From IMG/VR virus record IMGVR_UViG_3300032287_004273, positions 15,359-79,358 of that record: a stretch of 64,000 bases of DNA; one strand, 5' to 3'. The notes under the pieces were generated by a model. The model was not told where the DNA came from and did no database searches. It worked only from the letters and a program-made list of their open reading frames with translations. This DNA is from a virus. Position numbers and translations under genes: made by a program. The number at the start of each line of letters is the position of its first letter. The stretch's first letter is position 1. Shown here piece after piece: positions 10,139-47,546 of this stretch.

Positions 10139-10180
10139 TTTTGCGCTTGACTTTTCATTAATTTTGCATATATTCGACGC

Positions 10181-11137
10181 ATGAAGACATTAGTAATCGA
10201 TTCCCACAAAGGTGGGCCAAAACTTTCCAACAATCTACACTTACTCAATGCAAAAACAATCTCAGATCACTTGGGCGCAGACCTCATCTGGTCGTATGAA
10301 GGAGTCAATGATAGCATTAAATCTGGCTATGACGCTATTATCTTTAATCACGCATCTCATTATTCTTTCGTGGATTATAAGTGGTTAGAAGAAAGTCCAA
10401 ATGCCAAACTTTTTTATATTACAAATGAATACAATCTGGGCGAACCTCGCGCACTTTGGATGGCTGTTAAGCGTGGACGTAAGTATGATGTTATTGCAAA
10501 TCATTCTCACGAGCCAAGCAAAGTGGTAATGAAGTATGTAGACAAATGGAACATTCTTAATCTAAATTCATTAATTCATTCACCAGTAAAAACAGACATA
10601 CACAGTAAAAATGACATCATTTATCATGGCTCATTTCGGGCCGACAGAGCAAAATATTTTAGCAAGTATCTTAGCTCTGATGTTATCGTTAGTACTCATC
10701 AAAAGAATCGTGAAAAATTCTTAAACGCTGGAGTAAAAACAGAAAAATTCATTGATAGAATTAAATGGGACAAGGATGGACTAGCTCCATATCTTTGTTC
10801 ACTTTATATCGAAGATGAAAAAACTCATACCTATTACAATCATCTAGCCAATAGATTTTACGAATCTCTAAATTATAATGTTATACCACTCTTCTCTGAA
10901 GAGTGCGTCAATACTATTGAGCTTTCGAAGTATCCAATTACAACTGATTTAATATTTTCAAATCCTGATCAATTAAAGCAAAAGTATGATTTCGTAAAAA
11001 ATAATCGAGATTATATGATTCAATTGTTGGTGAATTGGGATATTAAAGCTGGACAAGAAAAGCGCAAGGTATTGGATGATATTAAATATTTAGTTTATGG
11101 ACCAGAAAATTATACAGCTTCAATTAACGCAAGATGA
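10181..11137 (+). CDS. GT-B glycosyltransferase resembling T4 DNA beta-glucosyltransferase
   Basis: DIIYHGSFR and SLYIED...NRFYESL segments parallel BGT motifs as recalled; own TTGACT/TATATT promoter. Confidence 0.5.
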   Translation: MKTLVIDSHKGGPKLSNNLHLLNAKTISDHLGADLIWSYEGVNDSIKSGYDAIIFNHASHYSFVDYKWLEESPNAKLFYITNEYNLGEPRALWMAVKRGRKYDVIANHSHEPSKVVMKYVDKWNILNLNSLIHSPVKTDIHSKNDIIYHGSFRADRAKYFSKYLSSDVIVSTHQKNREKFLNAGVKTEKFIDRIKWDKDGLAPYLCSLYIEDEKTHTYYNHLANRFYESLNYNVIPLFSEECVNTIELSKYPITTDLIFSNPDQLKQKYDFVKNNRDYMIQLLVNWDIKAGQEKRKVLDDIKYLVYGPENYTASINAR

Positions 11138-16535: not shown

Positions 16536-16826
16536 ATGGAAGTTAAAATTGATTCTCTTGTTTATCAAGATTTTGTCCACGATTGGATAAAAAAAATTAA
16601 AAAAAAGAATCCAGAAAGATTGCCAGAAGATAAATTAGATTTACTTTACCAAGACTTTGATAGAGTAAATGGCTTAAAGCATTACGAGAGAATTTATACA
16701 AATAAATACTCTCCAGAAGATATTTTTAAAGTTGTCAATAAAGCTAAATATCTGTTTTTCAAATTGAAAAACAACCTTGACAGTTCCGAATATGATGGTA
16801 GTATCGAGGAAATCTATGAAAACTAA
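16536..16826 (+). CDS. hypothetical protein, KYGI-family related
   Basis: FKVVNKAKYLFFKLK segment. Confidence 0.55.
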   Translation: MEVKIDSLVYQDFVHDWIKKIKKKNPERLPEDKLDLLYQDFDRVNGLKHYERIYTNKYSPEDIFKVVNKAKYLFFKLKNNLDSSEYDGSIEEIYEN

Positions 16827-17367
16827 ACCCTTAAACGAACAAGAAATTGCAGTTTTATTCACAGAATATTTTTCTGAACTTAAAAAATATATTTTAAATT
16901 TTACTAGCTCAATTGATTTTGCTGAAGATTCGGCACAATTAAGTTTCATGAAACTTTGCAGAAATAAACCATCCTTTGAAACTCCTGAATCCGCAAAATG
17001 CTGGCTAAAAACAGTCGCTAAAAATTCACTTTTTACATTTCATAAAAAAAATAAAAAGTACATCTTTATTGATACTCAAGAGTCCGCTTCGGAAATTGAA
17101 AATCTGCAGCCTCAAATTGATGTCGCGAGTGGATTTGAAAATTTAGCTGATTTAGAAGAGGAAGTTCTTAATAGAACCACTTTAATTAGTTTAATGAACA
17201 AATTAACTAAAAAACAAAAAGAAGTTTTGCAACTCAGATACTTTGAAAATCTCACTTACGAACAAATAGCGCAAAAAACAAAAAATAAAGTTACAAATGT
17301 TGGTTTCTTGATTAACGAAGGAAAAAGGAATTTGAAAAAATTTTGGAACAATTACGCAAAAGCTTAA
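16816..17367 (+). CDS. RNA polymerase sigma-70 family (ECF-like) sigma factor
   Basis: Region 2 AEDSAQLSFMKL...WLKTVAKN; region 4 LTKKQKEVLQLRYFENLTYEQIA. Confidence 0.85.
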   Translation: MKTKPLNEQEIAVLFTEYFSELKKYILNFTSSIDFAEDSAQLSFMKLCRNKPSFETPESAKCWLKTVAKNSLFTFHKKNKKYIFIDTQESASEIENLQPQIDVASGFENLADLEEEVLNRTTLISLMNKLTKKQKEVLQLRYFENLTYEQIAQKTKNKVTNVGFLINEGKRNLKKFWNNYAKA

Positions 17368-17725: not shown

Positions 17726-17894
17726 AATTAGTTTTAATAATTCGACTCAACTTTGGACTGCTGAAACTGAAAGTGGAATTTTTATTGGAAAATCAAAAGA
17801 TAAAGAAAGTTTATACGAGCAAATTTTCTTGTATTTTAGAATAAATATTCACTTTTAATCTTGACTAAATATATAAATCTGTTAAATTTGAAAC

Positions 17895-18989
17895 ATGAGT
17901 ACTGACAAAAAAATTGACGTAACAAAAACTGCGCAAAGCAATGCCCTTGGACCATCTGCAATTAAATCTGCCATCAAAACCCTCTTGAAGGCTAGAGAGG
18001 TTCCTATGATTTGGGGACCGCCAGGGGTTGGCAAGTCAGATCTCTGTTTTGAGATTGGTAGAGAAACAAATAGAAAAGTTCTCGATATTCGTCTTGCACT
18101 TTGGGAACCAACTGATGTTCGCGGCATTCCCTTTTACGATCCAGAATCTAAAACAATGAAGTGGGCTCCACCTTCTGAGTTGCCACAAGGTAAAAAAGAT
18201 AATCCTATTATTTTATTTGATGAACTTCCTTCTGCGGCACCCACTGTTCAAGTTGGCGCATATCAAATTACTCTAAATCGCAGAATTGGTGAGTACGTGC
18301 TTCCCGAGGGTGCAGATATGATTTGCGCAGGTAATCGCGAAAATGATCGCGGCGTTACTTACAAAATGCCAATGCCCTTGGCTAATCGCTTGATTCATCT
18401 CCAGATGAAAGCGGATTTTAATGATTGGTTTCAATGGGCAATTAATAACGATGTGCATAATGACGTAGTTTCATTTTTGACTTGGTCTAAGAAAGATCTT
18501 TTTGACTTTGATCCAAAGTCTTCGTCAATGGCTTTTGCAACTCCTCGTTCTTGGGAAAAGGCATCTAACATTTTAAAGCATGTAACTAACGAATCTGAAA
18601 ATTTAGTTACTTCATTAATGGGGGGAGCAATTGGTGATGGTTTGGCAATCAGTTTCATGACTTATAGGAAACTTGCAAGCAAGCTTCCCAAAACAGATGA
18701 GATTCTAGATGGTTCGCTCAAGAAACTCAAGAACTCAAAAGACATTTCAATTCTTTACGCTATCTGCATTAACTGCTGCTCAGAACTGAGAGAAAGAATT
18801 GGTCAGAAAAATTGGTTGGAGCAAGTAGATAATTATTTTCAGTTTGCTCTTGACAATTTCATGCAAGAGATGATAGTTGTGGCAGTCAAGTTCGCATTGA
18901 GAAATTACGAACTGCCAATCGATCCATGTAAGCTTAAAACATACAACGCTTTCATGGAAAAAGTAGAAAAACATCTTTTCTCTAATTAA
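17895..18989 (+). CDS. MoxR-type AAA+ ATPase
   Basis: GPPGVGKS Walker A, LFDE Walker B, AGNR, LANR, TPRSW. Confidence 0.9.
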   Translation: MSTDKKIDVTKTAQSNALGPSAIKSAIKTLLKAREVPMIWGPPGVGKSDLCFEIGRETNRKVLDIRLALWEPTDVRGIPFYDPESKTMKWAPPSELPQGKKDNPIILFDELPSAAPTVQVGAYQITLNRRIGEYVLPEGADMICAGNRENDRGVTYKMPMPLANRLIHLQMKADFNDWFQWAINNDVHNDVVSFLTWSKKDLFDFDPKSSSMAFATPRSWEKASNILKHVTNESENLVTSLMGGAIGDGLAISFMTYRKLASKLPKTDEILDGSLKKLKNSKDISILYAICINCCSELRERIGQKNWLEQVDNYFQFALDNFMQEMIVVAVKFALRNYELPIDPCKLKTYNAFMEKVEKHLFSN

Positions 18990-33616: not shown

Positions 33617-33854
33617 GGGTAAAAAATCAAATTACAATCGCGGCTTAATGTAATTTATAATGAATTTTTATTCCAATTCCTCATTTGCTCTCTGTAGTTT
33701 GTAATGGAATATAGTAGTTATGGTCATTTATTGTAATTAGCCTAGTATATTACTGACTAGGCTCCAACAGAAGCGGAATGAAATTCAATAATCGAATCAT
33801 TGTCGTATTGTGACAGTCGATTACTAACTAGGTAAAAATTGCCTAGTCGTTATA

Positions 33855-34358
33855 TTAGAAACGATAGGTTAATAGGAATAGGGCAATCCATAACCAAATA
33901 ACATCGTCAGACCAAACGCTATAGAATATCGCGTGCGCCATGCGTTCAGCTTTGCTTGGTTCATACGATATCTCCACAGATGCGGGGAACTCCCAGACAG
34001 CATCTGGAGAAGGAAATACAGTAGAAGAATAGGTTATTTGTGCTGACTCACTATCACGTACAGCATCAAGAAGAGTAGAATTATCATCATATTTTTGGTT
34101 GCTATTGTCACCAATAACATTGGTGTCACCATCACTATCAACATCAGAAGAAGTATCAGATCCATCGATACTCATGATAAAAGCAGAAGGGGAAATAACG
34201 TAAGAATCATTAACATTAGCAATAGATGAACAAGAAGAAAGAGAAGATGAGTTAGATAATATAGAAGAAGAGTTAGAAGATAGATTACAAATACGCTTGT
34301 TTAACTCTCCCATCAATTTTGTTAGTTTATCTTTATCATTGGGAGTTAATCTACTCAT
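33855..34358 (-). CDS. Ser/Asp-rich protein with hydrophobic C-terminus
   Basis: Only leftward ORF here; GTGTAA motif 8 nt upstream of ATG. Confidence 0.5.
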   Translation of the reverse strand: MSRLTPNDKDKLTKLMGELNKRICNLSSNSSSILSNSSSLSSCSSIANVNDSYVISPSAFIMSIDGSDTSSDVDSDGDTNVIGDNSNQKYDDNSTLLDAVRDSESAQITYSSTVFPSPDAVWEFPASVEISYEPSKAERMAHAIFYSVWSDDVIWLWIALFLLTYRF

Positions 34359-34440
34359 AAAAAAATTTACACCAACGTAGCGGCGACGAACTAAAATAGT
34401 TGTAAGTTATTGCAGCAACAAAACTTCCAAAAATTTTATG

Positions 34441-34695
34441 CGATGAGCCAAATAATAACCACTAGGCAAAATTTGCCTAGTAACTCAAAAAAAACTCAAA
34501 AAATTTCATGACCTCGGCCAAATAAAGAGGTAGGCAATTTTTGCCTAGTACGTAAAAAAGCAAAAAATTTCATACAGCTCGCCAAATAAGCGCCCCTCCC
34601 AACTAGGCAAAATTTGCCTAGTAGATAAAAAGCAAAAAATTACCAGCAACCAAGCAAATAAATACCAGGGCAGCTAGGCAATTTTTGCCTACCAT
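34441..34695. repeat. four ~70-bp units each with palindrome TAGGCAA-N3-TTGCCTA (iteron/operator-like)
   Basis: Palindromes at 34463, 34531, 34604, 34675, each preceded by (G)CAAATAA and an A tract; related copies at 33829, 36535 and 47447. Confidence 0.85.
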
Positions 34696-35216: not shown

Positions 35217-35252
35217 TTGACATTTAAATTCCACCCCTATATATTTGCTCAC

Positions 35253-36176
35253 ATGTTTGACAACCTCATTGGACAATCCGAAATCAAAGATCAACTAGGC
35301 TTCTACTCGAAAGCCTTCCAAAAGACTGGCACTGTACCATTTATACTTCTGAATGGTGCTAAAGGTCTGGGCAAGACTGAGTTCCTCAAGGCGTTCAGCA
35401 AGACCATCACCAATAGTGATGGCAAGCCGCGCCCTATGCTGGAACTCAACTCCAGCACCATCAAGAACAATCAAATGTTCTTTGAGCAGATCTTTATGCC
35501 CATCGTGCAGGGAAACGAAGTAACTCTTTTCTTCGATGAGTGTCATGCACTCCCTAACGATCTGGTGATGGCATTCCTGTCCATCCTCAATACAGAACGT
35601 ACACCTTACAAGGAGTTCAACTGGAGAGAGTATACCTTTACTTTTGATTTCACTAAGATCTCCATGATCTTTGCAACTACCGAGTTAGATAAACTATTTC
35701 CTCCTCTTAAGGATCGGCTGACTGTTCTTGATTTCAAACCATATAATCAAAATGAGTTAGCCGCAATCATCAAGGGTCGCTTGCCAGATGTAGAGTTTGA
35801 AGATGGATTGGTTGAGGAGATTGCCACCACCACCAGAGGTAATGCACGTGATGCTGTAAAGCGTGCAAAGCAAATCGAATTGTACTGCGAGACCAACAAT
35901 TCTAATTTGTTTCTTAAGGATGAGTGGAATGATCTTCGTAAAGTGCTTGGCATCAAACCTTTGGGGTTATCTAATACAGAGGTGCAAGTGCTTGAGATTC
36001 TTAACGCTAGAGGGCCATCCACCTTACAAACTATCGCAGCAGTGACTGGCATGAGTCGTACTGCAATCCAGAAGGATGCTGAACTGTATCTCCTACAGCG
36101 TGGACTCATGAAGATCAATGGTGTTCGCGAGCTTACCAGATTAGGTGCAGACCTAATCAAACAAATGTCAGAGTAG
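35253..36176 (+). CDS. ruvB: RuvB-like Holliday junction branch-migration ATPase
   Basis: FDNLIGQ, GAKGLGKT, FFDECH, ATT, PLKDR, RGNAR, C-terminal winged helix ELYLLQRGLM; leaderless promoter. Confidence 0.85.
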   Translation: MFDNLIGQSEIKDQLGFYSKAFQKTGTVPFILLNGAKGLGKTEFLKAFSKTITNSDGKPRPMLELNSSTIKNNQMFFEQIFMPIVQGNEVTLFFDECHALPNDLVMAFLSILNTERTPYKEFNWREYTFTFDFTKISMIFATTELDKLFPPLKDRLTVLDFKPYNQNELAAIIKGRLPDVEFEDGLVEEIATTTRGNARDAVKRAKQIELYCETNNSNLFLKDEWNDLRKVLGIKPLGLSNTEVQVLEILNARGPSTLQTIAAVTGMSRTAIQKDAELYLLQRGLMKINGVRELTRLGADLIKQMSE

Positions 36177-36487: not shown

Positions 36488-36575
36488 TCAAGAGTAAAAA
36501 TTAACAAAAATTATTTCAAATAAGACGAAATAAGTAGGCAAAAACTGCCAGGGGGAGCCCTGGTCACAAAAGACT

Positions 36576-36607
36576 ACACCCCACCCTTTCGGGTGAGGTG
36601 TTTTTTA
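36576..36607. terminator. terminator at the convergence of rightward and leftward units
   Basis: ACACCCCACCC-TTTC-GGGTGAGGTGT plus T run. Confidence 0.7.
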
Positions 36608-36670
36608 TTGGGGGGAAATTTATTTACTTTTTATTTTTGGTTGCGAGTGCGAAGACAACTAGTAGAACAA

Positions 36671-37258
36671 TTAAGATTTGCATTTGCTGGGGGCATATGG
36701 TTCTCCTGTTTCTAGGTTGATGAGGACAACGTCGTCGATGTGACCTCCGTCTTTTACGTTCTTAGCATAGACATCGATCATAAGACTTGGTGTTATATGT
36801 CTTGCGTATACATAGATCTTGCCACTCGCAACGTTTCTGATTGCCCACTTGGCACCTTTTGGTACGCAGAGCCACTTGCTACTGCTATAGCATCTCTCTA
36901 CTGGTATTCCCAGCTTCCTCATCCAAGACTTCCAAGTAGGCCCATGTCCCCAACCCTTGTTGACTTCCCAATCTAAAGCGTGTGCCCATTCGTGTAGAAT
37001 AGTTTCTTTTGCTTTTTGTAAGAAGTTCGGGCTGTTCTTGTTTATGTGTATTATGTGGGTGGAAAGCTCGATTCGTTTTGTCTTTCCATTATTAGATCTC
37101 CAAGCCCTGCCCATTACAGTCCTCAGTCTTTTGTTCCATTTGATTTCCCACCCTTCTAGGATGGGATACTGGAGCTTGATCTGAGCAGAGATTTCTTTGA
37201 ACAATGTATTTACTTCGGCAATCATATTAGTCATCGTCTCTAAATTATTCTTCGTCAA
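36671..37258 (-). CDS. SprT-like zinc metalloprotease
   Basis: WNKRLRTVMGRA, IELS, TILHEWAH, GHGPTWK. Confidence 0.85.
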   Translation of the reverse strand: MTKNNLETMTNMIAEVNTLFKEISAQIKLQYPILEGWEIKWNKRLRTVMGRAWRSNNGKTKRIELSTHIIHINKNSPNFLQKAKETILHEWAHALDWEVNKGWGHGPTWKSWMRKLGIPVERCYSSSKWLCVPKGAKWAIRNVASGKIYVYARHITPSLMIDVYAKNVKDGGHIDDVVLINLETGEPYAPSKCKS

Positions 37259-37451
37259 ATTCTTTTTCTCCTAGTGGTTCAGAGTCAATCGAAAAGAAAA
37301 CTTCGTCTTTGTAAAGATAGTCTCCCTCACCACTAGCAATGTGAATGCCAGTTACATTGTGAAAGTTATCATATACTTCCACGATTACATGGGAGTCAAG
37401 TTGATCGGCAGTCATGCGACCTAAGTCTTTTATTAGTTGTCTGTATGTCAT
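37245..37451 (-). CDS. hypothetical protein
   Basis: MTYRQL start, overlaps the next gene. Confidence 0.6.
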   Translation of the reverse strand: MTYRQLIKDLGRMTADQLDSHVIVEVYDNFHNVTGIHIASGEGDYLYKDEVFFSIDSEPLGEKEFDEE

Positions 37452-37470
37452 ATTTTTTAGCAATTTAAAG

Positions 37471-37547
37471 TGGCGTACCCAGCAGGGTTCGAACCTGCGA
37501 CCAACGGATTAGAAATCCGTTGCTCTATCCAACTGAGCTATGGGTAC
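37471..37547 (-). tRNA. tRNA-Arg(TCT)
   Basis: GTACCCA/TGGGTAC acceptor, TTTCTAA loop, CCA. Confidence 0.92.
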
Positions 37548-37904
37548 TTAAAGACAAGGGTGGAAAGCAAGATCTACATCCTTGCGGTGATATTCTTCAG
37601 ATAGAATGCGCTTTGTCAAGACAATTTCCACCTTGCCAAATGGATAAACATATATCTCACCATAAGTGCCAGCGCCCATATCGAAATCTGGATAATGCTC
37701 CTGTAACAAATGTTCAATTTCATCTTGATAGATTGGAGCAACTTCTTTACTGGAAACGAGTTTGTCCCCAAGCGCAAAGTACACGCAGGAATCAAACCAA
37801 TGAGTACAGGAATCCTCAGAAGTCCAGTGATAGATTGCGTACTTTAGATCACGACTCTTTAGAACCTCAACAAGATCAAGCAATGTCTTTTCCATATGCG
37901 TCAC
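37548..37904 (-). CDS. hypothetical protein
   Basis: First gene of its cassette; TTGCCT/TATGAT promoter. Confidence 0.6.
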   Translation of the reverse strand: MTHMEKTLLDLVEVLKSRDLKYAIYHWTSEDSCTHWFDSCVYFALGDKLVSSKEVAPIYQDEIEHLLQEHYPDFDMGAGTYGEIYVYPFGKVEIVLTKRILSEEYHRKDVDLAFHPCL

Positions 37905-38024
37905 ATCATAAACAATCTTAGCGAGAAGGCAACATTTATTTCAAAAATATTTACGCACTTGTGCGTAATAACACTTGACAGGGAGCCAGGGCTACCCCTG
38001 GGGCGTAACCACCTCATTCTGAGG

Positions 38025-38110
38025 TGGTAGCTAGGGCGGGACTCGAACCCGCACGCCCTACTGGGCAACAGATTTTAAGTCTGTTGTGTCTGCCATTTCA
38101 CCACCTAGCC
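38025..38110 (-). tRNA. tRNA-Leu(TAA)
   Basis: CTTAAAA loop, long variable arm, CCA. Confidence 0.92.
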
Positions 38111-38125
38111 GAAAGAAAAAGAAAG

Positions 38126-38198
38126 TGGGGACGGAGGGATTTGAACCCCCAACCAAGCGATTATGAGTCGCCTGCTCTGACCATTGAGCTACATCCCC
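38126..38198 (-). tRNA. tRNA(CAT), probably Ile2 (lysidine)
   Basis: Anticodon arm GGCGACTCATAATCGCT as in bacterial Ile2 tRNAs; fully paired acceptor. Confidence 0.85.
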
Positions 38199-38204
38199 GA
38201 AAGC

Positions 38205-38591
38205 TTACAATTCAAAAGCGAGAATGTTATCTGATGGAAGAAAGTTCAACTCTGCCTCACCTTCATATAAGGAATATCCTAGCACAGTCAAAGCAAAGAC
38301 GCAAGCATTATCGTAAGAAAAATCTCGAAAGGAATGGATCTCTACACCATCATCTTTGTCCACAATGTAGTAGTCTTTAATCTCATCAGATAAAGATTTA
38401 GGTTCTACACGAAAGCCCAAATGTGTAAGGGCTTGTTCTTCAGGTGTTTGCGGTGATTCTTTATCAATCATTACTTGTTCCTGAAAGGAAGTGTCATCTT
38501 CGATTAGTGTATACGGTTGGTGCATATTTATTTCTTTAACATTAAGCATATTACGACGAGGGTTACGATTAGAGCATCCATAATTAGACAT
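38205..38591 (-). CDS. hypothetical protein
   Basis: Overlaps the upstream stop. Confidence 0.6.
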   Translation of the reverse strand: MSNYGCSNRNPRRNMLNVKEINMHQPYTLIEDDTSFQEQVMIDKESPQTPEEQALTHLGFRVEPKSLSDEIKDYYIVDKDDGVEIHSFRDFSYDNACVFALTVLGYSLYEGEAELNFLPSDNILAFEL

Positions 38592-39279
38592 GAATTACAA
38601 AGCCCGAATTATCTTTTTTTGCTGGCCCCTTGGCACGCAGTCCCACGATTGTATTCTTTGGATCAAGGAAGCGAAGATCGTTTTCATCTCCGTCAATGAC
38701 TTTGAAACCTTCGTGTTCTGTTGGCAAGGGTTGATCTTTTTTAGTGGAGAAAACAAAGGCTGAATTGTTTCCTTTTGCTAAAGCTGCGAAAGCTTTAACT
38801 TGAGACACTTTAGTCTCTGCGCGTGAGAAAGTCAAGTGGTAATTTGAAATTGTCAAGTCCAAACGATCAAACAATTTTGTGTAATCATAGAACTGCACAC
38901 CAGAAAAATGCTGGAAAATGTTTTTGCCCTTGTGGATAATGTCTTCCCATCTGACATCGGAAGTTAAGTTGAGACGAAACACAGCTTGCAAACTTTTCTT
39001 TGCGGCTGATTTGATTCCTGTCTCAATTTCTTTGATTAAATTATCCATGAACAAAGCTTGTTCCTCAAAGAAGCTTTTTGTTTTTTCGATTCGCTGTGGC
39101 TGAACCATGACACCCATGCCAGCCAAGTTAAGGCATGAATCTGTGCAACCTTTAGATCTGCCTTGGCAAACTTCATAACCGCTAATGTTAGCGGGTGCAA
39201 AGTGAATGCCAAAGGTTTCGTATCCGAAGGATCTGCCCTTGAGCGTTTTGTAATTAGCAACGGTGAGTAATTTTTGCAT
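38584..39279 (-). CDS. GP88-like (CxxxxxxCxxxC) phage protein
   Basis: VCQGRSKGCTDSCL, RLNLTSD, FYDYTK, YHLTFS, DGDENDLRFLD. Confidence 0.65.
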   Translation of the reverse strand: MQKLLTVANYKTLKGRSFGYETFGIHFAPANISGYEVCQGRSKGCTDSCLNLAGMGVMVQPQRIEKTKSFFEEQALFMDNLIKEIETGIKSAAKKSLQAVFRLNLTSDVRWEDIIHKGKNIFQHFSGVQFYDYTKLFDRLDLTISNYHLTFSRAETKVSQVKAFAALAKGNNSAFVFSTKKDQPLPTEHEGFKVIDGDENDLRFLDPKNTIVGLRAKGPAKKDNSGFVIHV

Positions 39280-39380
39280 GGGTGAAGAATATCATGAGCA
39301 AGGGGTGGTGCAACAATTATTTCGCAAAATATTTACGCCTTTAGGCGTAATAGTTCTTGACATCCCAGCCAGGGCTACCC

Positions 39381-39577
39381 CTGGCCCCCACCCGATGGGT
39401 GGGGGTCAGCTTCCCGATAGCGTTGGTTGTCAGTTAAACAAACCAAAAAAAGCAAACCAACAATCTATTTGGAAGAGAAAGTAACTGGCCCCCACCCCAC
39501 TGGGTGGGGGTCAGCTTCCCGATAGTTTAGCTCGCTGAGATCCCCTCAGAAAACGCGAGCATCATCTATTTGGAAGA
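39381..39577 (-). ncRNA. two tandem ~100-nt units with constant scaffold and variable insert (candidate sRNAs)
   Basis: Repeats at 39381-39420/39485-39525 and 39463-39476/39564-39577; the scaffold halves base-pair. Confidence 0.45.
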
Positions 39578-40465
39578 ATGGAATTGTCCAAGATTCTGTC
39601 AAGGTAGAACATTCCGAAGTGTGGTTGCTCCACCTTACCGTTCTTTGCTACTATGTAGAGAGTGACAGCTTCAGGTGGGCAATGGTTAGTTCCACCTTTT
39701 GATCCTTTCTTTACGCCAGTACGAACAGTGTAGGTGTTTGTTTCACCTTTCTTGTTATGGTACTTGATCGAAAAGAACTTTCCGTTTGTTGTTGCGATAA
39801 TGCGTTTGCCGATCATATGTGGTGCTGGTTCGAGTGTGTTATTATTCATATAATTATCGTGAAAGATCAACTTGATTGCCATCCTCATCTTCGTCGTCGA
39901 AGTCTTCGTCCTCGTCGTCCCAAACAACATCTGGTTCTGTGGTGTTCATTGCAATGGTAGCGAGCAGATGATCGTAGTCTCCGCTTTGCGCTTCTTTTAG
40001 AACCGCACGAACTTCTTCTTGTGACCAACCTTGGCGAAGCGCGTTGCTTCTCCATGTACCCATAATTGCAAATGCGTTGCCGTCGAGGCCGACCAGTTCC
40101 ATCTTAACTTTCTTGGTTTTTGTGTTTTGCATATCGCTTGTATTGTTTTTTGCTTGGTTGTACGACTCGCAACATTCTGTTGCCCCATCGTAAAGTTTTT
40201 TGATAGGTTACCCCATCGACAATCAGTTTTTGCTTTTTGGAGTCCATACTCTCAACATATCCTCATCCTTCATGATGTCAATCCCAAATCCCAATGTTTG
40301 GAAAGTTTTCTGCAAAGTGTATGCTTGCAACTCAAGAATCTTTTTCATCTCGTTTGATGTCATAGCTTCACCGACAGCTTCCTGCGTAGCCCTGTGGAAT
40401 GCGTAAAGCATTTCACAAAACTGATTTACCAATGGGGTCAACTCTTTGATGGCGTCTTTGTTCAT
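39562..40465 (-). CDS. cassette of three hypothetical genes (40223-40465, 39854-40132 with DGNAFAIMG motif and acidic tail, 39562-39849)
   Basis: TTGCGC-17-TATGAT leaderless promoter at 40499. Confidence 0.65.
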
Positions 40466-40606
40466 GTGGGTATCATATACAGAGCAACCGAATGCGCAAC
40501 ATTTATTTCAAAAATATTTACGTCCTTGGACGTAATAGTTATTGACAGCCCAGCCAGGGGTGGCCCTGGACCCCCGCCTTTCGGCGGGAGACCATTCGTA
40601 TGGAAA

Positions 40607-40912
40607 TTAATGTGCGACTACTTCTGCTTCGTCGATTTCTATGCAGAACTCTCCGCCGCCAAGGGAGAATTCAAACTTATTGCCTGTAAGGGAAACTTCT
40701 TGAGGAAGCCTGCGATCTGTTTTATGGTTAAGCAGAACGCTGTGATCCATCCCATCTTTCCACCTTTCGAGGTGAACATTGGTGGGAACGAAGTGAGTGA
40801 TGTTATGCCAGAGGATCAATCTTTCTTTCTTTTTGATTGCTCTCTTGACTCGCTCAACGTGAGCGTGTTTGACTTTGATCGTGATGTTGGTGTTTCCAAT
40901 GTTTGTTTGCAT
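40607..40912 (-). CDS. hypothetical single-gene cassette
   Basis: TTGCAC/TATGCT promoter then TCTCAC-ATG. Confidence 0.65.
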   Translation of the reverse strand: MQTNIGNTNITIKVKHAHVERVKRAIKKKERLILWHNITHFVPTNVHLERWKDGMDHSVLLNHKTDRRLPQEVSLTGNKFEFSLGGGEFCIEIDEAEVVAH

Positions 40913-41074
40913 GTGAGAAGCATAGCAAAAGCTCTCATGCGTGCAACAATTTTAATTAAAAAAAATTACGCACCTGTGCGCAATAGTTGTTGACAGAAAA
41001 GCCAGGGGTAGCCCTGGCCCCCCGCATAGCGGGGGGTGGGTTGGGAGCGGTGTTACCCGCTCCCCCCGAAGGGC

Positions 41075-41845
41075 TTACGCTTCAGCGCCTGCAAGCTCTT
41101 CAACGTCAATCAGTTGGGGCTCAATGATTGATGCGTGACCCGCAATCGAATCGAAGATTGATTGCATGACCATCGTGCGAGCGGGGAGCTTGGTCAGGTC
41201 GGAGCCTTTCAGGTTCTCCGTCACAGAGTTGTACAGGTTCCACAAGGTGGGCGTGTTGAACTCAGGGTGACGGGGAGCCTTGAACTCTTGCGTGACGGCG
41301 AACACATCGCGAGCGGGAAGCGCCTTAGCTTCAGCGAGTTGAACTGAAAGCTCGCACGCACGATCAAAACCGATTTCGGTGTTCTGATACCGATTGATTC
41401 GGGTTTCCATATCCGTCCAATGCGAGAGAAGGCGACCGATGCCCTCAGACAAAACGCGAGGAATGTCGCGAATGATGTTGACGGTGTGACGGCGAGCCAG
41501 CTTCACATCGCTGGAAAAGCACAGGTTCTCGCATACGATCATGCGGTTGCCAATGCACATACTAGCAGCGAATGACTTGTCGTGCGCGTTACGCAATCCC
41601 AAGACGAGCTTGCGCGAATCGCTATTGATATCGGGGCCAGTGATCTGGAACCCGCCGAAGTACCGTTGACCGAAACGGCCCAGAGCGTGCTTTTCTTCGG
41701 TGACGCTGTAGCCTGCGCGATCCAAAGCGGAAAGCGTTTCTTCCACAAGGAAGGAATGGCTGATTGGGGTGAAGCTGTCCGTGCCATCTGGGGTACGGAC
41801 GGTTGCGAGTTCTTCACGGGAGACGAGGTTCTTTGCAATGATCAT
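41075..41845 (-). CDS. DUF932-family protein
   Basis: PISH, LRNAHDKSFA, RMIVCENLCF, RRHT, TLWNLYNSVTE. Confidence 0.8.
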   Translation of the reverse strand: MIIAKNLVSREELATVRTPDGTDSFTPISHSFLVEETLSALDRAGYSVTEEKHALGRFGQRYFGGFQITGPDINSDSRKLVLGLRNAHDKSFAASMCIGNRMIVCENLCFSSDVKLARRHTVNIIRDIPRVLSEGIGRLLSHWTDMETRINRYQNTEIGFDRACELSVQLAEAKALPARDVFAVTQEFKAPRHPEFNTPTLWNLYNSVTENLKGSDLTKLPARTMVMQSIFDSIAGHASIIEPQLIDVEELAGAEA

Positions 41846-42066
41846 ATGTTTGATTAGGTTTAATGGTTAACTGACAGAAGAGAGTCTCTCACAGCTTGGG
41901 TTTTAGTGCAACGGATTTTTTTGATTTTGAGCATTTATTTTCACCTCAGAAACCATGCCAAGCGCAAATATTTTTGCGCTTGAGCGTAATAGTCTTGACA
42001 GCCCCAGGCCAGGGGTAGCCCTGGACCCCGCCTTTCGGCGGGGTCAAGTGCCTGTGCGTGCCGCAC

Positions 42067-42932
42067 TTACGCCAGATGCGCGATCTTAGCCTCCACAAGG
42101 CGAAGGCGCTCGCGTGCTTCGCGCACATGCGCGAGAGCGAAGTCGGCCACGCCGTTAAGGAGTTCTATGTCGGCCTCTGTGGTGAGACGAGCGACGTTGA
42201 TGTCGCGGACGCACTCGCGTAACACGCGAAGGCTCGCGGTCATGAGTGCTGCGGAGGAGGCGGGTTGTGGTGTGTTTAGTGTCATATTAGGTGTAGCAGA
42301 CAGGGTGGATATCATCCCTTAGTCCATTCCATTTTCTGTTCATCATAATGGAATGGGTGTGCATAACTCTTTTGAGCCTTTGCTTGGATTCTGTCTTGAC
42401 TTTCTTCAACTTGGAAAGTTCCATTTGCAGATAGGTAATCTCATCAATGCTGAGACTTTTTGCGGCTTCAATGATTTGTTTTTTATTCATATTAATTTAA
42501 TGCTTTGATAATGCTTGCGCTGGAGCCCCCTCTGCGAGAAGGAGAAACGCAGAGGGAGCTTGCGCATAGCGCAACAGGGGAAACAACAACCCTGTCCTAC
42601 CGAAAGACTCTTGTCAAATGATTATTGACACCGTTCTTGAAAAACTCATAGTCAACGCAGTCAACCGCATCCAACTTGTACCCACCGATATTCCATTCAA
42701 ACAAAACGTCTGGGCTGGATGGTACGCGCTTCCATGCGTAGATGGTGGCGACTGTATCATTGGGGAATCTTAAGCGCCATTCGATGTTAACTTTTTCGCT
42801 TTCATCGATTGGATTATTATGCTTGTCAGGCGCACCGAATACAGCAACCAATTGGTCGTATGTGCATGAGATGTAACCTTTGAGCGAGGTTCCGTTGATG
42901 AGTGGCGTTCTTCTAACTGCTGTAGTTGTCAT
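42067..42932 (-). CDS. cassette of three genes (42597-42932, 42287-42490, 42067-42285)
   Basis: TTGCAC/TATCTT promoter at 42967; 42597 has GTSLKG, KVNIEW, TIYAWK, WNIGG motifs. Confidence 0.65.
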
Positions 42933-43040
42933 GGATAGAAAGATAGCACAGGAAAGAGTGCGTGCAACTTATTTTTCAAAAATAATTACGCCCTTGGGCG
43001 TAATAGTGCTTGACAGATCCCCAGGGCTACCCCTGGGCGT

Positions 43041-43115
43041 TGGTGGACAGGATGAGACTCGAACTCATAACCAACGCCTTAAAAGGGCGCTGCTCTACCA
43101 TTGAGCTACCTGTCC
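43041..43115 (-). tRNA. tRNA-Lys(TTT)
   Basis: GGACAGG/CCTGTCC acceptor, CTTTTAA loop, CCA. Confidence 0.92.
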
Positions 43116-43183
43116 CTTTGTGCCAGAGCCTCCCCCGCACTCGCGGGGGAGGATGGATGACACAACACACCTAACCACAGAAA

Positions 43184-43972
43184 TTATCTTGCTGCTTCAA
43201 AGCAGTGAGCCGCATGGAGTTCCAGATGTTTGCGGATGTCTTTAATTTTTTGCTTGACCTCATCTCTTTGAGAGACTGCCATGTTCCAACTCTCATCGCC
43301 CTTTGGGTAGTAGTCTCGCTTGTGAAACTCAACCGCAAAAAACTTTTCAGAGAATTGTTCTAGCGCACGAAGCGCATCGAAGTACTGTCCACCTAGTGAT
43401 TTGCCATCGTTGCCATTCATGTGGATGAATGGAAAACAAACAGAAGGATTATCAAGCTGGACTTGTGATTGTGCTGTTTCGGAGATCATTGTTGCAAGTA
43501 TGTTTGGATTTTTTCTTTTAGTTCAATGAGGAAGTTTTCTTCCACGTTCAATTCGTATGAGAGCTTATCTCTTAAGTCTGCATCCGTCAAGCAATGTTTG
43601 CAGATTTCGAGGGCTTTGGTGATGTCTTCTGGTGTGAGCATGATATTAGTCCCAACGTTGTTCAATAAAATCTTTGACCCTCATTTCCTGTAAGACAAGA
43701 AATTTAAATTTTTGTTTTAGTTTTGAAGTGAGTTCAATTAGACCATCAGCATATATCTTCGCATCACACTTGTCAAGTTTAAAACGAAGATCATGACCGT
43801 CTTGACGAGAAAACAAAGAAAACGTATCTCGTATTGTTTCAACATTATCATCGTAATGATAGACTTCTGATCCAAATTCGCTTTGAAGTACGAATGCCCA
43901 AGATTCACAAAGGATGTCTAACAGGTCTGATGGACTGATTGGTTTTGATTCTGCTTTCAATGGGTTGTTCAT
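43184..43972 (-). CDS. cassette of three genes (43646-43972, 43486-43641, 43184-43489)
   Basis: TTGCGC promoter at 44007; middle 51-aa ORF not in track. Confidence 0.6.
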
Positions 43973-44108
43973 GTTTAGAACTCTATCATGGGTTTTGATT
44001 CGCGCAACATTTATTTATCAAAAAATTACGCACTTAGTGCGTAATAGTTCTTGACAGTCGAGCCAGGGGTAGCCCTGGCCCCAACCCTTTCAGGTTGAGG
44101 CGGTTATA

Positions 44109-44532
44109 CTACTCGACCTCCTCTTCTTCCTCTTCTTCCTCTTCGTCGAGCCCACCGAAGAGCGAGTCCCACTCTTCGGCGGTAATGCCCGACTTAATGA
44201 ACTCCCGCTCGTCGGGAGTTAAGTTAGGGAACGCATCTTGCAGCAGAGCGCCTGCTGCATAGAGGTCGAGCTGCGTTTGCGTGATGGGAAGATCAAGCGT
44301 GTTGACTTCCCCCGATACCCACGATGTGCGTGTGATGTTCATGTTTTTATTATTTGTTGCTGATTTGACGGACAGAAGAAACTGGTGGCCATTCGGGCGA
44401 TTCGCCGTTAAGAAGGGCGATTTGATATTCGCGCTCTTCGATCATGCACTCGATTGCGGTTTGCAACTGGCGCAAAGAGTCGAGGTCGCTGAAGTTTTGC
44501 TTAATCAATTCGATCAATGGGTTCGTTCTCAT
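44109..44532 (-). CDS. cassette of two genes (44350-44532; 44109-44342 with QDAFPNL.PDEREFI motif and poly-Glu tail)
   Basis: TTGTGC promoter at 44566. Confidence 0.65.
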
Positions 44533-44673
44533 GGAAGAATCATCTCACAATTCTGCTTTTGCACAACAAAAAAAGAGCAAAAAAATTTACGCTGCAAGCG
44601 TAATAGTTGTTGACAGCCAGCCCAGGGGTAGCCCTGGCCCCCAACCCATTCGGGTTGAGGGCTTTAGCTCTGT

Positions 44674-45155
44674 CTACTTGGCCAAGTCAAAGAATGGGCC
44701 ACTGAACTGGATTTGCCGTTCGTGCGCAAGTGCTTGCGCCCGTTCACGTTCCTCCTGATCAGCCACCTGCTGATTGAGGATATGCGCCTCTTGCAACATT
44801 GCGCTGCACTCATGCGCAAGCATGAAAAGCAATGTGTGTTGCTCGCAAGTGAGCGCGAGTGGGTCGAGCCCCGCAATCATTTTGCGGGACTCGATGAGGA
44901 CTGCGTTTTGCATAAGTTGAAGTGCGTCTTGCATAGGATGTATTATTCGCGTTCTTGGAGTTGTTTGATTCTGCCTGCAATATGTTCTTTGGCCTCTGGC
45001 ACAAAAGTTGCCATACCTATCAAAAAACCTTCGAGGTGGCCAACGATGCACGCATCGACAAGTTTCTCGCCATGCCTTTTCGCGATGTCCGCCTTGGTAG
45101 CGGCCATGAAGGTTTGCATAATCTGAACTGCGTCTGTGTAGTTGTTTCTTTCCAT
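44674..45155 (-). CDS. cassette of two genes (44943-45155, 44674-44934)
   Basis: Starts reassigned to ATGs downstream of the promoter at 45189. Confidence 0.6.
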
Positions 45156-45318
45156 GCCCAAACAATAGCATAAAAAGAAAGGGCTACAATACTCTTTTTT
45201 CATGCCAAGCGTGAAAAAAAGTTCATAAAAATTTTCACTTAATAGCGTAATAGTTCTTGACACCCAGCCCAGGGGTAGCCCTGGCTCCCAACCCTTTCGG
45301 GTTGAGGGGTTTACGGGT

Positions 45319-45576
45319 TTAGTTGTATGCCTTGAGCGGCCCTTGGCCCTCGCACTCAATGCGATGGCGCTCAGTCAAGCGCTCAACCGTTTCAATCGTG
45401 TGCCGCAAAGAGGCTTGGAACTTTGGGTCGCCTTCAAAATCAAACTGCAAGTCGCGCAATGCGTGCTCAAGCATCATGGCCTGAATCGTGGTGCGCGTCG
45501 AGAGCTTGTTGCGTGGGTTCACGCTAGAGTATGCGTGAATTTTGCTGATCAGATCAGAGACTTTGATGTTTTCCAT
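45319..45576 (-). CDS. hypothetical single-gene cassette
   Basis: TTGCGC/TATTGT promoter. Confidence 0.6.
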   Translation of the reverse strand: MENIKVSDLISKIHAYSSVNPRNKLSTRTTIQAMMLEHALRDLQFDFEGDPKFQASLRHTIETVERLTERHRIECEGQGPLKAYN

Positions 45577-45742
45577 GCTCAGACAATAGCAGAAAACAAA
45601 ATGTGCGCAACACTCTTTTTTCATGCCAAACTTCAAAAAAAGTTTACAAAAATTTTCACCCTATTTCATAATAGTTCTTGACGCCCAGTCCAGGGGTAGC
45701 CCTGGACCCCAACCCTTTCGGGTTGAGGTGTTTGCGCTTATG

Positions 45743-45985
45743 CTATTCTTCCATCATGCACTCGATGGCCGCTTTAATCTTTGCTAGTGAATCTGGGTCA
45801 TTATATCCTTGACGGATTTGCTGAATGATTCCTTCGCATGATTGCGTATTCTCGACGAACGTGCATAACTCCTTGAAGTCTGGGTCGCTTGGAAGCGACA
45901 GCGCCCAATTCAGACTCTGCTGAATTGCGCGAAGCGCGTTTAGATCCCTGTCTTCGTAAGTGTCGGTGGTAGGATAGTCGTACAT
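45743..45985 (-). CDS. hypothetical single-gene cassette
   Basis: TTGAAC/TATGAT promoter. Confidence 0.6.
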   Translation of the reverse strand: MYDYPTTDTYEDRDLNALRAIQQSLNWALSLPSDPDFKELCTFVENTQSCEGIIQQIRQGYNDPDSLAKIKAAIECMMEE

Positions 45986-46118
45986 AACTGAGAGAATCAT
46001 ATACAAGAAAGTGTGCGGTTCAACATAAAAATTTTGCTTTTGATGCTTAATAGTTCTTGACAGCGAGTCCAGGGGTAGCCCTGGCGGCTTGTCAAGTATT
46101 TTCTTTTGTTTTTCTCAC

Positions 46119-46146
46119 AAAAAAAGCCGCCCGAAGGCGGCTTTTT
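46119..46146. terminator. bidirectional terminator, same stem-loop repeated at 46639-46668
   Basis: A-tract GCCGCC-CGAA-GGCGGC T-tract (UUCG loop on the - strand). Confidence 0.85.
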
Positions 46147-46161
46147 GTGCTTGACGCGATT

Positions 46162-46479
46162 TTAGAAATCGCCCCCTTCGCACTCGTTCATCGACTCCCA
46201 ATGGGAGTCGAGGAAACTGTCCTCCCCACCGCCGTAGTCCTCATCCGTCCCCCACCCAGCGGACGCGAGCGCATCCGCATCCGCCTCGCCATCCGTCATG
46301 CCGTCCCCTTCGTCTTCGCCCAGATCCTGCGTGCAATCGTCCCCCTCCGCCTCGATCTGCTCCGAAGGATCGTAGTACTCCCCAATCGAGGGGCAGCACC
46401 CGCAGCAAGGCGCGTCCTCGCAGGGGAACTGCGCGTGCGTGTTTTCGTCGTCTGAACCTGAATTAGATGATGTAACCAT
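46162..46479 (-). CDS. extremely acidic Cys-cluster protein
   Basis: CEDAPCCGCC and DADALASAGWGTDEDYG motifs; no Lys/Arg. Confidence 0.7.
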   Translation of the reverse strand: MVTSSNSGSDDENTHAQFPCEDAPCCGCCPSIGEYYDPSEQIEAEGDDCTQDLGEDEGDGMTDGEADADALASAGWGTDEDYGGGEDSFLDSHWESMNECEGGDF

Positions 46480-46683
46480 GCGCCAAACATAACACATAAA
46501 AGCAAAAGGTCAAAAACTATTTGCGTGCCAAGCCTGAATTTAAATTCATAAAAATTTCTCACAAATAGCATAATAGTTGTTGACGCCCGACCCAGGGGTA
46601 GCCCTGGATCTTGTCAAGAGTTTTTTTTATTTTAGTGCAAAAAAAAAGCCGCCCGAAGGCGGCTTTTATGGCGGCTTTTATGC

Positions 46684-46938
46684 TTAGAGCGCCATTTGCC
46701 TTTCGTGCGCGAACGCTTGCGCCCATTCGCGAGCGTCCTCCTCCGCTTCCCCGAATTCGACGGAGGCGACATCCGCCTCCTGCGCGAAACGCGCCTCCTG
46801 CGCGTTCGCGCAGGCAAAGGACGCGATTTGATGGAGGAGCGCGATGTGCTCCTCCGTCAGGGATGCGCAATTGAGGTCGCGCACGCAGGCGCGAACGTGA
46901 ATGAGAACCGCTGTGAGATTGGACGATGTATTAACCAT
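46684..46938 (-). CDS. hypothetical single-gene cassette, paralog of 42067 and 44674
   Basis: VRACVRDLNCASLT, AQAFAHERQ. Confidence 0.65.
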   Translation of the reverse strand: MVNTSSNLTAVLIHVRACVRDLNCASLTEEHIALLHQIASFACANAQEARFAQEADVASVEFGEAEEDAREWAQAFAHERQMAL

Positions 46939-47069
46939 GCGGATACAGTACAAAAAGAATGCTGCGATTGGAAGGATTATTTGCAAAAAATTTCTCACTC
47001 TATGCACAATAGTTGTTGACAGGGTGGCCAGGGGTAGCCCTGGGGGCTGTCAAGCTTTTTTTGCTTTTT

Positions 47070-47279
47070 TTATGCTTGCACAACTTGCATGTTCTGTGGG
47101 CGCATTGAGTACTCCTTAGAGTACTCCTCATTCGTGAGTATCAGCGCGAAGCTGATATCGAAGCGACCACTTGCAAACAACTCAGCGCGAACGCTTTTTG
47201 CTTCGTCGCGAGTCTCGCAACGGATAGTTTCATGCCCGAAGTTTCCCGCCTTGTTTAAGCTAACGTATAATGTGAACAT
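47070..47279 (-). CDS. hypothetical single-gene cassette
   Basis: TTGCAA-17-TATAAT then ATG. Confidence 0.65.
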   Translation of the reverse strand: MFTLYVSLNKAGNFGHETIRCETRDEAKSVRAELFASGRFDISFALILTNEEYSKEYSMRPQNMQVVQA

Positions 47280-47546
47280 GCGATGATTATAGGGTAACAA
47301 ATGTGCGATTGCAAAAACTATTTTCGTGCCAAGTGTATTTTTAATTCTTAAAAAATTTCCTACAAATAGCTCAATAGTGCTTGACAGGGTGGCCAGGGGT
47401 CCCCCTGGAGTTTTTTGCCTAGTGAGTTTTTGCCGCCTCCTAGAGGTAGGCACTTCTTGCCTAGCGCCAGGGATCATGCACTTTCTGCATCATGCACTGG
47501 TCGCATGGCCATGCATGGGCCGCATCCCATGCATGGCGTGCATGGC

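Follow-up and report, generated by a model that had tools for sequence, protein, structure and literature searches.

Bacteriophages of the T4 type carry promoter-early stem-loop (PeSL) cassettes, which have been described in RB49/phi1, T4/PST and KVP40/nt-1 (PMC2839356, PMC4122927). PeSL stem-loops are rich in GGGG...CCCC and were shown experimentally to be terminators, the crossovers of PeSL mini-circles were mapped experimentally to several points of the module (PMC2839356), and the authors speculated that the stem-loop might bind a protein (PMC2839356, PMC4122927). Here we analyze a 64,000-nucleotide stretch of viral DNA (the window; C1:15359-79358 of the 79,358-bp linear IMG/VR contig IMGVR_UViG_3300032287_004273, which has a CheckV completeness of ~55% and was also scanned as a whole). 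It contains, at 36535-47421 on the minus strand, an ~11-kb array of leftward cassettes, about 14 in number, that carry early genes and tRNAs and are punctuated by exact copies of the palindrome CCAGGG-N4-CCCTGG. We propose that these cassettes are autonomous, PeSL-like units that would be shuffled by homology-driven recombination at their repeated boundary modules, and that the palindrome within each module is probably read by a dimeric protein.

The palindrome occurs in 15 exact copies (36548-47408) and nowhere else in the whole record, and none of 100 dinucleotide-preserving shuffles contained it. Successive copies are spaced 365-1438 bp apart, with one to three small genes or tRNAs in each cassette, and the genes and four tRNAs between copies all lie on the minus strand. 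All 15 copies are intergenic once leaderless ATG starts are applied; long open reading frames (ORFs) that seemingly overlap a copy (e.g. 47070-47477) begin upstream of the real ATG (47279). A TTGAC motif precedes 14 of the 15 copies, with 5-8 nt between TTGACA and the palindrome (copy 1, at 36548, has no such motif), and nine copies match TAATAGTNNTTGAC exactly. On the plus strand the loop reads GTAG in nine copies, CTAC in three, and GGAG, GTGG and GTCC in one each, and copies 12-14 (46069, 46592 and 47028) carry a mirrored GTCAA on their right side. These observations bear out an earlier note made from the sequence of the window, which had reported 15 window-unique, always intergenic copies, 14 of them behind the TTGAC-like motif, leftward units of 0.35-1.5 kb and the mirrored motif in copies 12-14. 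That note had also held that TTGACA is not an ordinary promoter, and this too stands: the plus-strand motif is followed by no -10 box at 17 nt, a position that falls inside the palindrome, and a role as a real -35 box was rejected even with the hairpins imagined extruded. A restriction-site reading (each palindrome holds two CCWGG) was likewise set aside, CCWGG being neither enriched nor avoided elsewhere (22 observed vs ~32 expected by our own base-composition estimate).

Around each palindrome the boundary module follows one order, identical across units. Read in the sense direction of the minus strand, it opens where the upstream unit ends, at a stop codon or the 3' end of a tRNA, and continues with a first hairpin (H1), the palindrome, a variable spacer of 5-8 nt, TGTCAA-N-AACTATTA, a further hairpin (H3), an A/T stretch, a promoter and the ATG. 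H1, at the 3' end of that unit, is a GC-rich hairpin whose sequence varies and whose loop is usually GAAA, and H3 has the form TTACGnnn...nnnCGTAA followed by a T-run. When folded as RNA, the module gave three separate hairpins (z-scores -2.4 to -4.9), and in the mirrored copies TTGACA pairs with TGTCAA, lengthening the stem. In a consensus scan, H3 with its T-run scored as terminator-like in most class A units, and the palindrome did so only at 36548 (minus strand) and 47393 (plus strand). The only members of a known RNA family that an Rfam scan of 33-50 kb recovered were the four tRNAs.

A sigma70-like promoter is predicted for each unit 55-90 nt past the palindrome on the minus strand. Its consensus comprises an UP-like A/T stretch (e.g. 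AAATATTTTTGAAATAAATG) that we judge close to the UP-element consensus, TTGCnn, 16 nt, TATnnT, 6-7 nt and the ATG. A -35 box, a 16-17 nt spacer and a -10 box with the ATG 6-7 nt further on were present in 61 of the 77 modules scanned in the window and its relatives, and in 12/15 within the window, where no promoter was called at 36548, 42009 and 46069. In 11 of these 12 window units, and in most units of five relatives, 6 nt separate the -10 box from the start codon. No Shine-Dalgarno sequences were found genome-wide, the regions before start codons being A-rich. Because the -10 box lies so close to the ATG and Shine-Dalgarno sequences are missing, host RNA polymerase most likely produces a leaderless mRNA from which the first gene of each unit is translated. 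The plus-strand genes at 10181 and 17895 are headed by a promoter of this leaderless type as well (e.g. 10141-10183 and 17855-17897; TTGACT-N16-TATATT-N6-ATG).

Other promoter types were tried and rejected. A promoter for a phage RNA polymerase (T7-like via CTATTA, or an N4-type hairpin) would need an enzyme that is not encoded within the 79-kb record, whose large ORFs encode tail proteins. The TTGGCAYG...TTGC of class B units recalls a sigma54 promoter; the GG-to-GC distance is 18 nt rather than 12, and the neighboring AAA+ protein is a RuvB homologue and not an enhancer-binding protein. A promoter for the phage's own extracytoplasmic function (ECF)-like sigma factor (AAC-N14-16-CGTAA, overlapping H3) matched five array modules and five other places in the genome unlinked to gene starts. 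A Bacteroidota-type promoter (TAnnTTTG) has the wrong spacing to the ATG, and sigma70-type boxes fit 61/77.

To follow the module beyond the window, we scanned IMG/VR by pattern and found it in six other viral contigs, each holding 2-18 copies, and a stricter pattern recovered 54 further metagenome contigs, for a pooled set of 61 contigs (302 kb) with 300 palindrome sites and 252 distinct modules. Scanning with H3 alone gave mostly single chance matches. By its large terminase the phage has 580 related loci in IMG/VR, and complete relatives measure ~110-140 kb. A pattern scan of 185,579 bacterial and archaeal genomes returned isolated chance matches and one unrelated repeat family, and the array in no bacterial genome. 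The repeat family comprises many copies of TTACCAATAATAGCTGAGAAnnCC-CCAGGG-N4-CCCTGG-GGATGAATCAGCTGG in metagenome-assembled genomes of Thermotogae and Bipolaricaulota (L031, L033, L038, L049, L057, L058, L063, L073, L076, L095 and L100); it shares the palindrome by coincidence and is probably a miniature inverted-repeat transposable element or an insertion sequence end.

Across the pooled set, the arms of the palindrome are fixed to a degree that sets them apart from the hairpins beside them. Besides the 300 perfect sites we found 13 single-mismatch variants, two loopless sites and no compensated variant; nine of the 13 mismatches fall at the innermost pair, leaving a core of CCAGG-N6-CCTGG. 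The enclosed loop takes 18 different sequences, including the flips GTAG/CTAC and GCAC/GTGC, and the adjoining spacer is variable. By comparison, H1 is present in 165 of the 252 distinct modules with at least 40 different stems, and 133 of 209 modules contain H3 as a perfect hairpin of 6 bp or more (vs 4 in shuffled controls), built from 18 different arms. This suggests that the palindrome arms are under sequence-specific rather than structural selection. Since structural selection alone would permit compensated arm changes, and since gene conversion could not fix both 6-nt arms while skipping the loop, the pattern further suggests a sequence-specific reader. The two half-sites lie 10 bp apart centre to centre and are weakly and symmetrically extended by G at -1 and -2 and C at +16 and +17, for which reason the reader is probably a dimeric DNA-binding protein acting on duplex DNA.

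The relatives also reveal what happens at the modules. In the closest relative, R1, whose shared parts are 88-97% identical to the window, eleven differences were examined, eight of them >100 bp, and three are exact palindrome-to-palindrome insertions or deletions (indels). For the segment at 45285-45690, R1 has a single module whose left flank is that of copy 10 and whose right flank is that of copy 11, with the nearest diagnostic mismatches at -1 and +17; at 47044-47393 the crossover lies inside TTGACAGGGTGGCCAGGG and the loop goes with the right flank; and at 41018-42009, which holds the DUF932 cassette, the R1 junction reads CCAGGGCCCTGG, the 4-nt loop having been lost. Positions within 20 bp of a palindrome make up 7.6% of the island yet hold about 6 of the 16 large breakpoints (binomial P = 8e-4); the other differences between the window and R1 fall inside cassettes. 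Order changes as well as content: the GP88 gene precedes the DUF932 gene in the window and R4 but follows it in R2 and R3, the tRNA-Lys cassette is found right of both genes in the window and left of them in R2-R4, and several cassettes are present or absent in differing combinations among relatives. The comparison of cassette order and content between relatives that the earlier note had recommended thus yields exact indels against R1 and reordering in R2, R3 and R4, and upholds its view of a modular early-gene array with the palindrome at cassette boundaries and breakpoints at the boundary module.

To locate the crossovers within the module, we compared pairs of sites from different contigs in which one far flank is shared (at least 90% identity) and the other is unrelated; the pairs are not phylogenetically independent, such that the following fractions of identity are to be read qualitatively only. 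When only the left flank was shared, the identical fraction was 0.41 for the spacer, 0.48 for the loop and 0.31 for the first 4 nt after the palindrome, and when only the right flank was shared these values were 0.26, 0.55 and 0.57. With both flanks shared they rose to 0.77, 0.89 and 0.90, and with neither they were 0.00, 0.13 and 0.15. Crossovers therefore centre on the palindrome, with a good share to its left or right within the module, and this spread fits homology-driven exchange better than a site-specific recombinase acting at a fixed point. It also agrees with the several crossover points mapped in PeSL mini-circles (PMC2839356).

Related phages offer a view of how far the fixed sequence extends. 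At the equivalent genomic place, L246 carries CCAGGC-N4-GCCTGG, and the complete 133.8-kb genome G001, which has terminal repeats, carries ten copies of GACCCC-N3-GGGGTC; in G001, L296 and L268 this element is invariant and sits between two long GTAAGTCGTTGA-N3-5-TCAACGACTTAC hairpins. The loci with the GACCCC-type boundary module (L363, i.e. G001:C1:59000-76000, L296, L268 and L283) have 68-70% terminase identity, their palindrome loops flip between GAA/TTC and GTA/TAC, and TGTCAAG, an A-rich stretch and a leaderless promoter come next. A complete 140-kb relative, G003 (L364, G003:C1:108000-127500), has nine triple-hairpin modules in which the central GC hairpin varies in sequence. Since other lineages carry different or variable boundary elements, the basic job of the hairpins is probably structural, i.e. 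insulation, and the fixed sequence is a lineage-specific addition to a shared multi-hairpin boundary, which fits a co-evolving reader.

Combining these results, we chart a model to which we assign a probability of about 0.6. Each cassette would be driven by its own strong host-type promoter, yielding a leaderless mRNA, and would end in a hairpin stack of variable H1, fixed palindrome and covarying H3, whose T-run abuts the next promoter, such that the inter-cassette modules could insulate each unit from the next. Being repeated, the modules may double as linkers for ordinary homology-driven recombination, which would insert, delete and reorder whole cassettes with expression intact, as in the PeSL cassettes of T4-type phages. 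A dimer would read the CCAGG(G) half-sites, one helical turn apart, on duplex DNA, and might serve as a boundary or roadblock factor or as an early-gene shut-off factor, encoded by the phage or by its host. The earlier note had placed one dimeric protein at every boundary; the fixed arms, varying loop and 10-bp half-site spacing support this part, and no binding protein was found to complete it. Of the functions it offered for such a protein, the recombinase is disfavored by crossovers that range over the whole module, and the activator is weakened by a palindrome-promoter distance that is constant only in close relatives.

Several observations weigh against this model. The loop has an orientation bias (GTAG 83 vs CTAC 14) that a fully symmetric dimer site does not need, and TGTCAA usually stands on one side of the palindrome only, which likewise speaks against full symmetry of the site. 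Neither the array nor its surroundings yielded a candidate DNA-binding protein, and the record encodes no HTH_3 or HTH_17 protein, which is weak evidence at ~55% completeness. The variable central hairpin of G003 indicates that a sequence-specific reader is not a general requirement of the architecture, and the U-tract missing at 13 of the 15 palindromes makes a termination role of the palindrome itself doubtful. Cutting at the centre of the palindrome could still account for the three exact R1 indels, of which one has a loopless junction, and the dependence among the pairs of the linkage comparison limits what their spread can say.

It could be argued that the palindrome acts purely as a hairpin in RNA or DNA, serving as second terminator or 3'-end-stabilizing stem in a stack of three, kept uniform by recent copying and with no specific reader. 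Its place directly after the 3' hairpin or tRNA of a unit, the canonical terminators that the two end copies form with T-runs in the consensus scan, the stem extension by TTGACA/TGTCAA pairing in mirrored copies, the termination shown for PeSL stem-loops (PMC2839356) and the G003 central hairpin, GC-rich and conserved in structure only, would all agree with this. We nevertheless consider it unlikely, if worth keeping in view: none of 300 copies has a compensated stem change on cassettes that have diverged to 65-95% nucleotide identity, while H1 and H3 covary; gene conversion cannot keep 6-nt arms identical yet skip the 4-nt loop and the spacer; and 13/15 copies have no U-tract. A more far-reaching version of the protein reading takes the palindrome as the operator of a dedicated boundary protein that insulates strongly transcribed cassettes and focuses recombination at their edges, amounting to an integrase-free, phage-borne cassette exchange whose specificity switches between lineages (CCAGGG-N4-CCCTGG, CCAGGC-N4-GCCTGG, GACCCC-N3-GGGGTC) and which the RuvB-like motor beside the array might assist; we regard this as speculative and distinctly unlikely.

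Alternatively, the palindrome could be the crossover site of a dedicated recombinase or nuclease, integron-like or homing-like, that cuts at its centre and moves cassettes. The exact palindrome-to-palindrome indels, with a junction that lost exactly the 4-nt loop, are what such an enzyme would leave, and the loop flips (GTAG/CTAC, GCAC/GTGC), the RuvB homologue always beside the array and a 40-nt inverted repeat that brackets it are in keeping with one. We hold this to be improbable, in that the spacer goes with the 'wrong' flank in ~1/3 of reassortments and the post-palindrome bases in ~1/5, arms of 6 bases with a 4-nt spacer are far below any known recombinase core site, and other indels lie inside cassettes. 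Moreover, the 79-kb record yielded neither a recombinase of the tyrosine or serine type nor a Y1 transposase (no PF00589 match at E<=1, and no PF01797), weak evidence given that the record is ~55% complete, and terminal direct repeats, as expected of circular mini-contigs, were present in 0/54 metagenome contigs. Lastly, the palindrome, perhaps with TGTCAAG, might be a host transcription-factor site borrowed to drive or time the early promoters. In three diverged lineages TGTCAAG does precede the -35 box by 49-50 nt, and palindromes differ between lineages of different G+C, whose hosts presumably differ too. The palindrome-promoter distance, however, is not conserved: it is 96.5-98.5 or 120.5-121.5 nt in the window, R1, R5 and R4 and 90-123 nt in R2 and R3, and is 24 nt longer in class B units. 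Helical phasing between the two was rejected on the same ground, the distance being constant only in the window and its closest relatives. Some copies in R2 and R3 flank plus-strand units, and these copies, like copy 1, have no downstream minus-strand promoter; together with the bacterial and archaeal genomes, which gave isolated chance matches and one unrelated repeat family, this leaves a host factor very improbable.

Positions of the palindrome copies, example module parts and other features (window coordinates)
Feature	Position	Strand	Remarks
Copy 1	36548..36563	.	array left end; no TTGAC module; minus strand then CAGTTTTTGC; outward-facing terminator-like
Copy 2	37986..38001	.	loop CTAC; tRNA-Leu and hairpin just upstream in sense direction
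Copy 3	39369..39384	.	loop CTAC
Copy 4	40554..40569	.	loop GTGG; GTAG in R1
Copy 5	41002..41017	.	in R1, copies 5 and 6 fused as loopless CCAGGGCCCTGG, intervening DUF932 cassette missing
Copy 6	42009..42024	.	in R1, fused with copy 5
Copy 7	43021..43036	.	loop CTAC; 4 nt past tRNA-Lys 3' end, no GC hairpin between
Copy 8	44063..44078	.	
Copy 9	44622..44637	.	
Copy 10	45269..45284	.	left limit of the 412-bp cassette (45285-45690) missing in R1
Copy 11	45690..45705	.	right limit of the 45285-45690 cassette indel; crossover = 16 bp +/- 1
Copy 12	46069..46084	.	TTGAC left, mirrored GTCAA right (~38-bp dyad); canonical terminator further right
Copy 13	46592..46607	.	mirrored GTCAA
Copy 14	47028..47043	.	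mirrored GTCAA; left limit of the 365-bp cassette missing in R1
Copy 15	47393..47408	.	array right end; plus strand then AGTTTTTTGCCTA; outward-facing terminator-like
H1, example	44079..44100	-	GAAA loop; directly abuts palindrome
Spacer and H3, example	44025..44062	-	conserved TGTCAAGAACTATTA; H3 = ATTACGCAC-TAA-GTGCGTAAT, then T-run; terminator-like
Predicted promoter, example	43972..44024	-	UP-like A/T stretch, TTGCGC, 16 nt, TAGAGT, 7 nt, ATG 43972 (leaderless)
SprT-like gene	36671-37258		
tRNA-Arg(TCT)	37471..37547	-	within cassette 1
tRNA-Leu(TAA) and tRNA-Met(CAT)	38025..38198	-	
GP88-family (PF17338) protein	38584..39279	-	order relative to DUF932 cassette reversed in R2 and R3
DUF932 protein cassette	41075..41845	-	in R2, R3 and R4; missing in R1
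tRNA-Lys(TTT)	43041..43115	-	cassette elsewhere in the array in R2, R3 and R4
RuvB homologue	35217..36176	+	full-length; PDB 3pfi, E = 7e-17; convergent with array left end
ECF-like sigma factor	16777-17367	+	196 aa; Sigma70_r4, E = 8e-10

Most products of the array have no family match. SprT-like and DUF932 genes are common in anti-defence regions of mobile elements, and small acidic proteins with poly-Glu/Asp tails are typical of DNA-mimic and anti-restriction proteins; small, strongly acidic products with such tails are encoded at 39854-40132, 44109-44342 and 46162-46497. The small proteins at 42067-42315 and 46684-46989, and possibly that at 44674-45141, have in common the motif ..CVRD(I/L)N.A.LT.E....L......A.A...EAR.., and so are diverged paralogues spread across the array. 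A further local difference from R1 lies at 39381-39577, where ~100 bp (39472-39552) are missing in R1; the region resembles a tandem duplication of a non-coding unit just after copy 3. The island as a whole has a G+C content of 42-51%, vs ~31% in the remaining genome, and the G+C at third codon positions (GC3) is 0.27-0.75 in cassette genes and 0.19-0.27 in core genes. Adjacent cassettes differ widely in this measure, and such unevenness indicates that the cassettes are of separate origin.

An assembly chimera was rejected as the source of the G+C-rich island, because the order of RuvB-like gene, array and, where the locus extends that far, large terminase recurs in independent contigs and in two complete genomes. 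The same order is conserved in the complete 134-140 kb relatives, including G001. The RuvB homologue adjoins the array in all relatives, palindromes flank its gene in R2 and R3, and no RuvA or RuvC partner was recognized. We take the source to be a large uncultivated tailed phage, with a lambda-J-like tail protein, and the island to be its early accessory-gene region; the ECF-like sigma factor presumably serves middle or late transcription. The 40-nt inverted repeat around the array (80% complementary; arms 36528-36567 and 47389-47428) is common to R1 and R5 and is not found in R4. Each arm joins an end palindrome to a TAGGCA-type half-site and a T-run, the left arm consisting of TAGGCAAAAACTG joined to the palindrome. 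The window also holds a second family of palindromes, TAGGCA-N5-TGCCTA, in six copies vs 0.05 expected (33829-34691 and 47447-47463). Four of its copies are phased at ~70 bp (34463, 34531, 34604 and 34675) just upstream of the plus-strand operon that ends in the RuvB homologue, and one copy lies immediately right of the last CCAGGG palindrome; this family may be an operator array or an origin.

To our knowledge, PeSL-type shuffling has been documented so far only in T4-type myoviruses. The array would extend the same logic to uncultivated phages of ~110-140 kb that form an unrelated and apparently abundant family, as judged by the 580 related terminase loci. With one exact 16-bp mark at each boundary, the gain, loss and reordering of cassettes are easily traced in metagenomes, and the small acidic proteins and the SprT-like, DUF932 and GP88-family genes belong to a class of early accessory or anti-defence cargo that shapes host range as it turns over. 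A palindrome that never covaries, set beside hairpins that do and beside its lineage-specific replacements, offers a testable handle on a question left open by the PeSL papers, namely whether a protein reads the stem-loop.

Among other known systems, repetitive extragenic palindromes (REPs) and bacterial interspersed mosaic elements likewise place short GC-rich palindromes in intergenic positions after gene 3' ends. REPs, however, are imperfect, spread chromosome-wide and tied to REP-associated (Y1) transposases, whereas no such transposase was found with the array and bacterial genomes gave single chance matches. The stoperators of cluster A mycobacteriophages, read by L5 gp71 or Bxb1 gp69, resemble the array in that dozens of copies of a single short, conserved site occupy the small gaps between genes, in their case read by one protein that controls transcription across units, and the L5 consensus also contains TGTCAAG. 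Stoperators are asymmetric 13-mers across the whole genomes of temperate phages that encode a known repressor; the array site is palindromic and confined to the early island, and neither repressor nor integrase was seen in the record. With integrons the array shares tandem small, unrelated genes split by a palindromic element, in a content and order that vary between relatives. It differs from them in that no IntI-type tyrosine recombinase was found in the 79 kb of this ~55% complete record, attC sites are imperfect, 57-141 bp long and have R and L boxes, whereas the array site is a perfect 16-bp palindrome, integron cassettes are promoterless and depend on a common Pc, whereas 12/15 array modules have a predicted promoter of their own, and the crossover point of integrons is fixed, whereas that of the array is not.

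The likeness to PeSLs is of another order, and here the earlier note, which had found that the motif matches neither PeSLs nor attC sites, has to be corrected: the array has the defining anatomy and behavior of a PeSL system (PMC2839356, PMC4122927). Both consist of repeated intergenic modules with an A/T-rich stretch, a strong sigma70-type promoter (predicted, in the array) and an upstream stem-loop, formed by a G-run and C-run in PeSLs, and in the array by H3 and its T-run, which abut the UP-like stretch, with the palindrome and H1 further upstream. In both, the modules are concentrated in one block of small, functionally uncharacterized genes, the hyperplastic block of T4-type phages and the 11-kb island that holds all 15 modules here, and close relatives differ by the insertion, deletion or replacement of whole ORFs at the modules, with crossovers scattered within them. 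A PeSL carries a Shine-Dalgarno sequence at its 3' end, whereas the array has leaderless starts with the ATG 6-7 nt after the -10 box; a PeSL has one hairpin, the array three per boundary; and PeSL stems vary, whereas one of the array hairpins is invariant over 300 copies. The array also has tRNA genes as cassettes, a G+C content in its island that is much higher and more heterogeneous than that of the core genome, and a host phage with a lambda-J-like tail protein in which no T4 core genes were seen, whereas PeSLs reside in T4-type myoviruses. We therefore regard the PeSL cassettes of T4-type phages as the closest known system, and the array described here as what appears to be a separate, lineage-specific form of PeSL-like logic.

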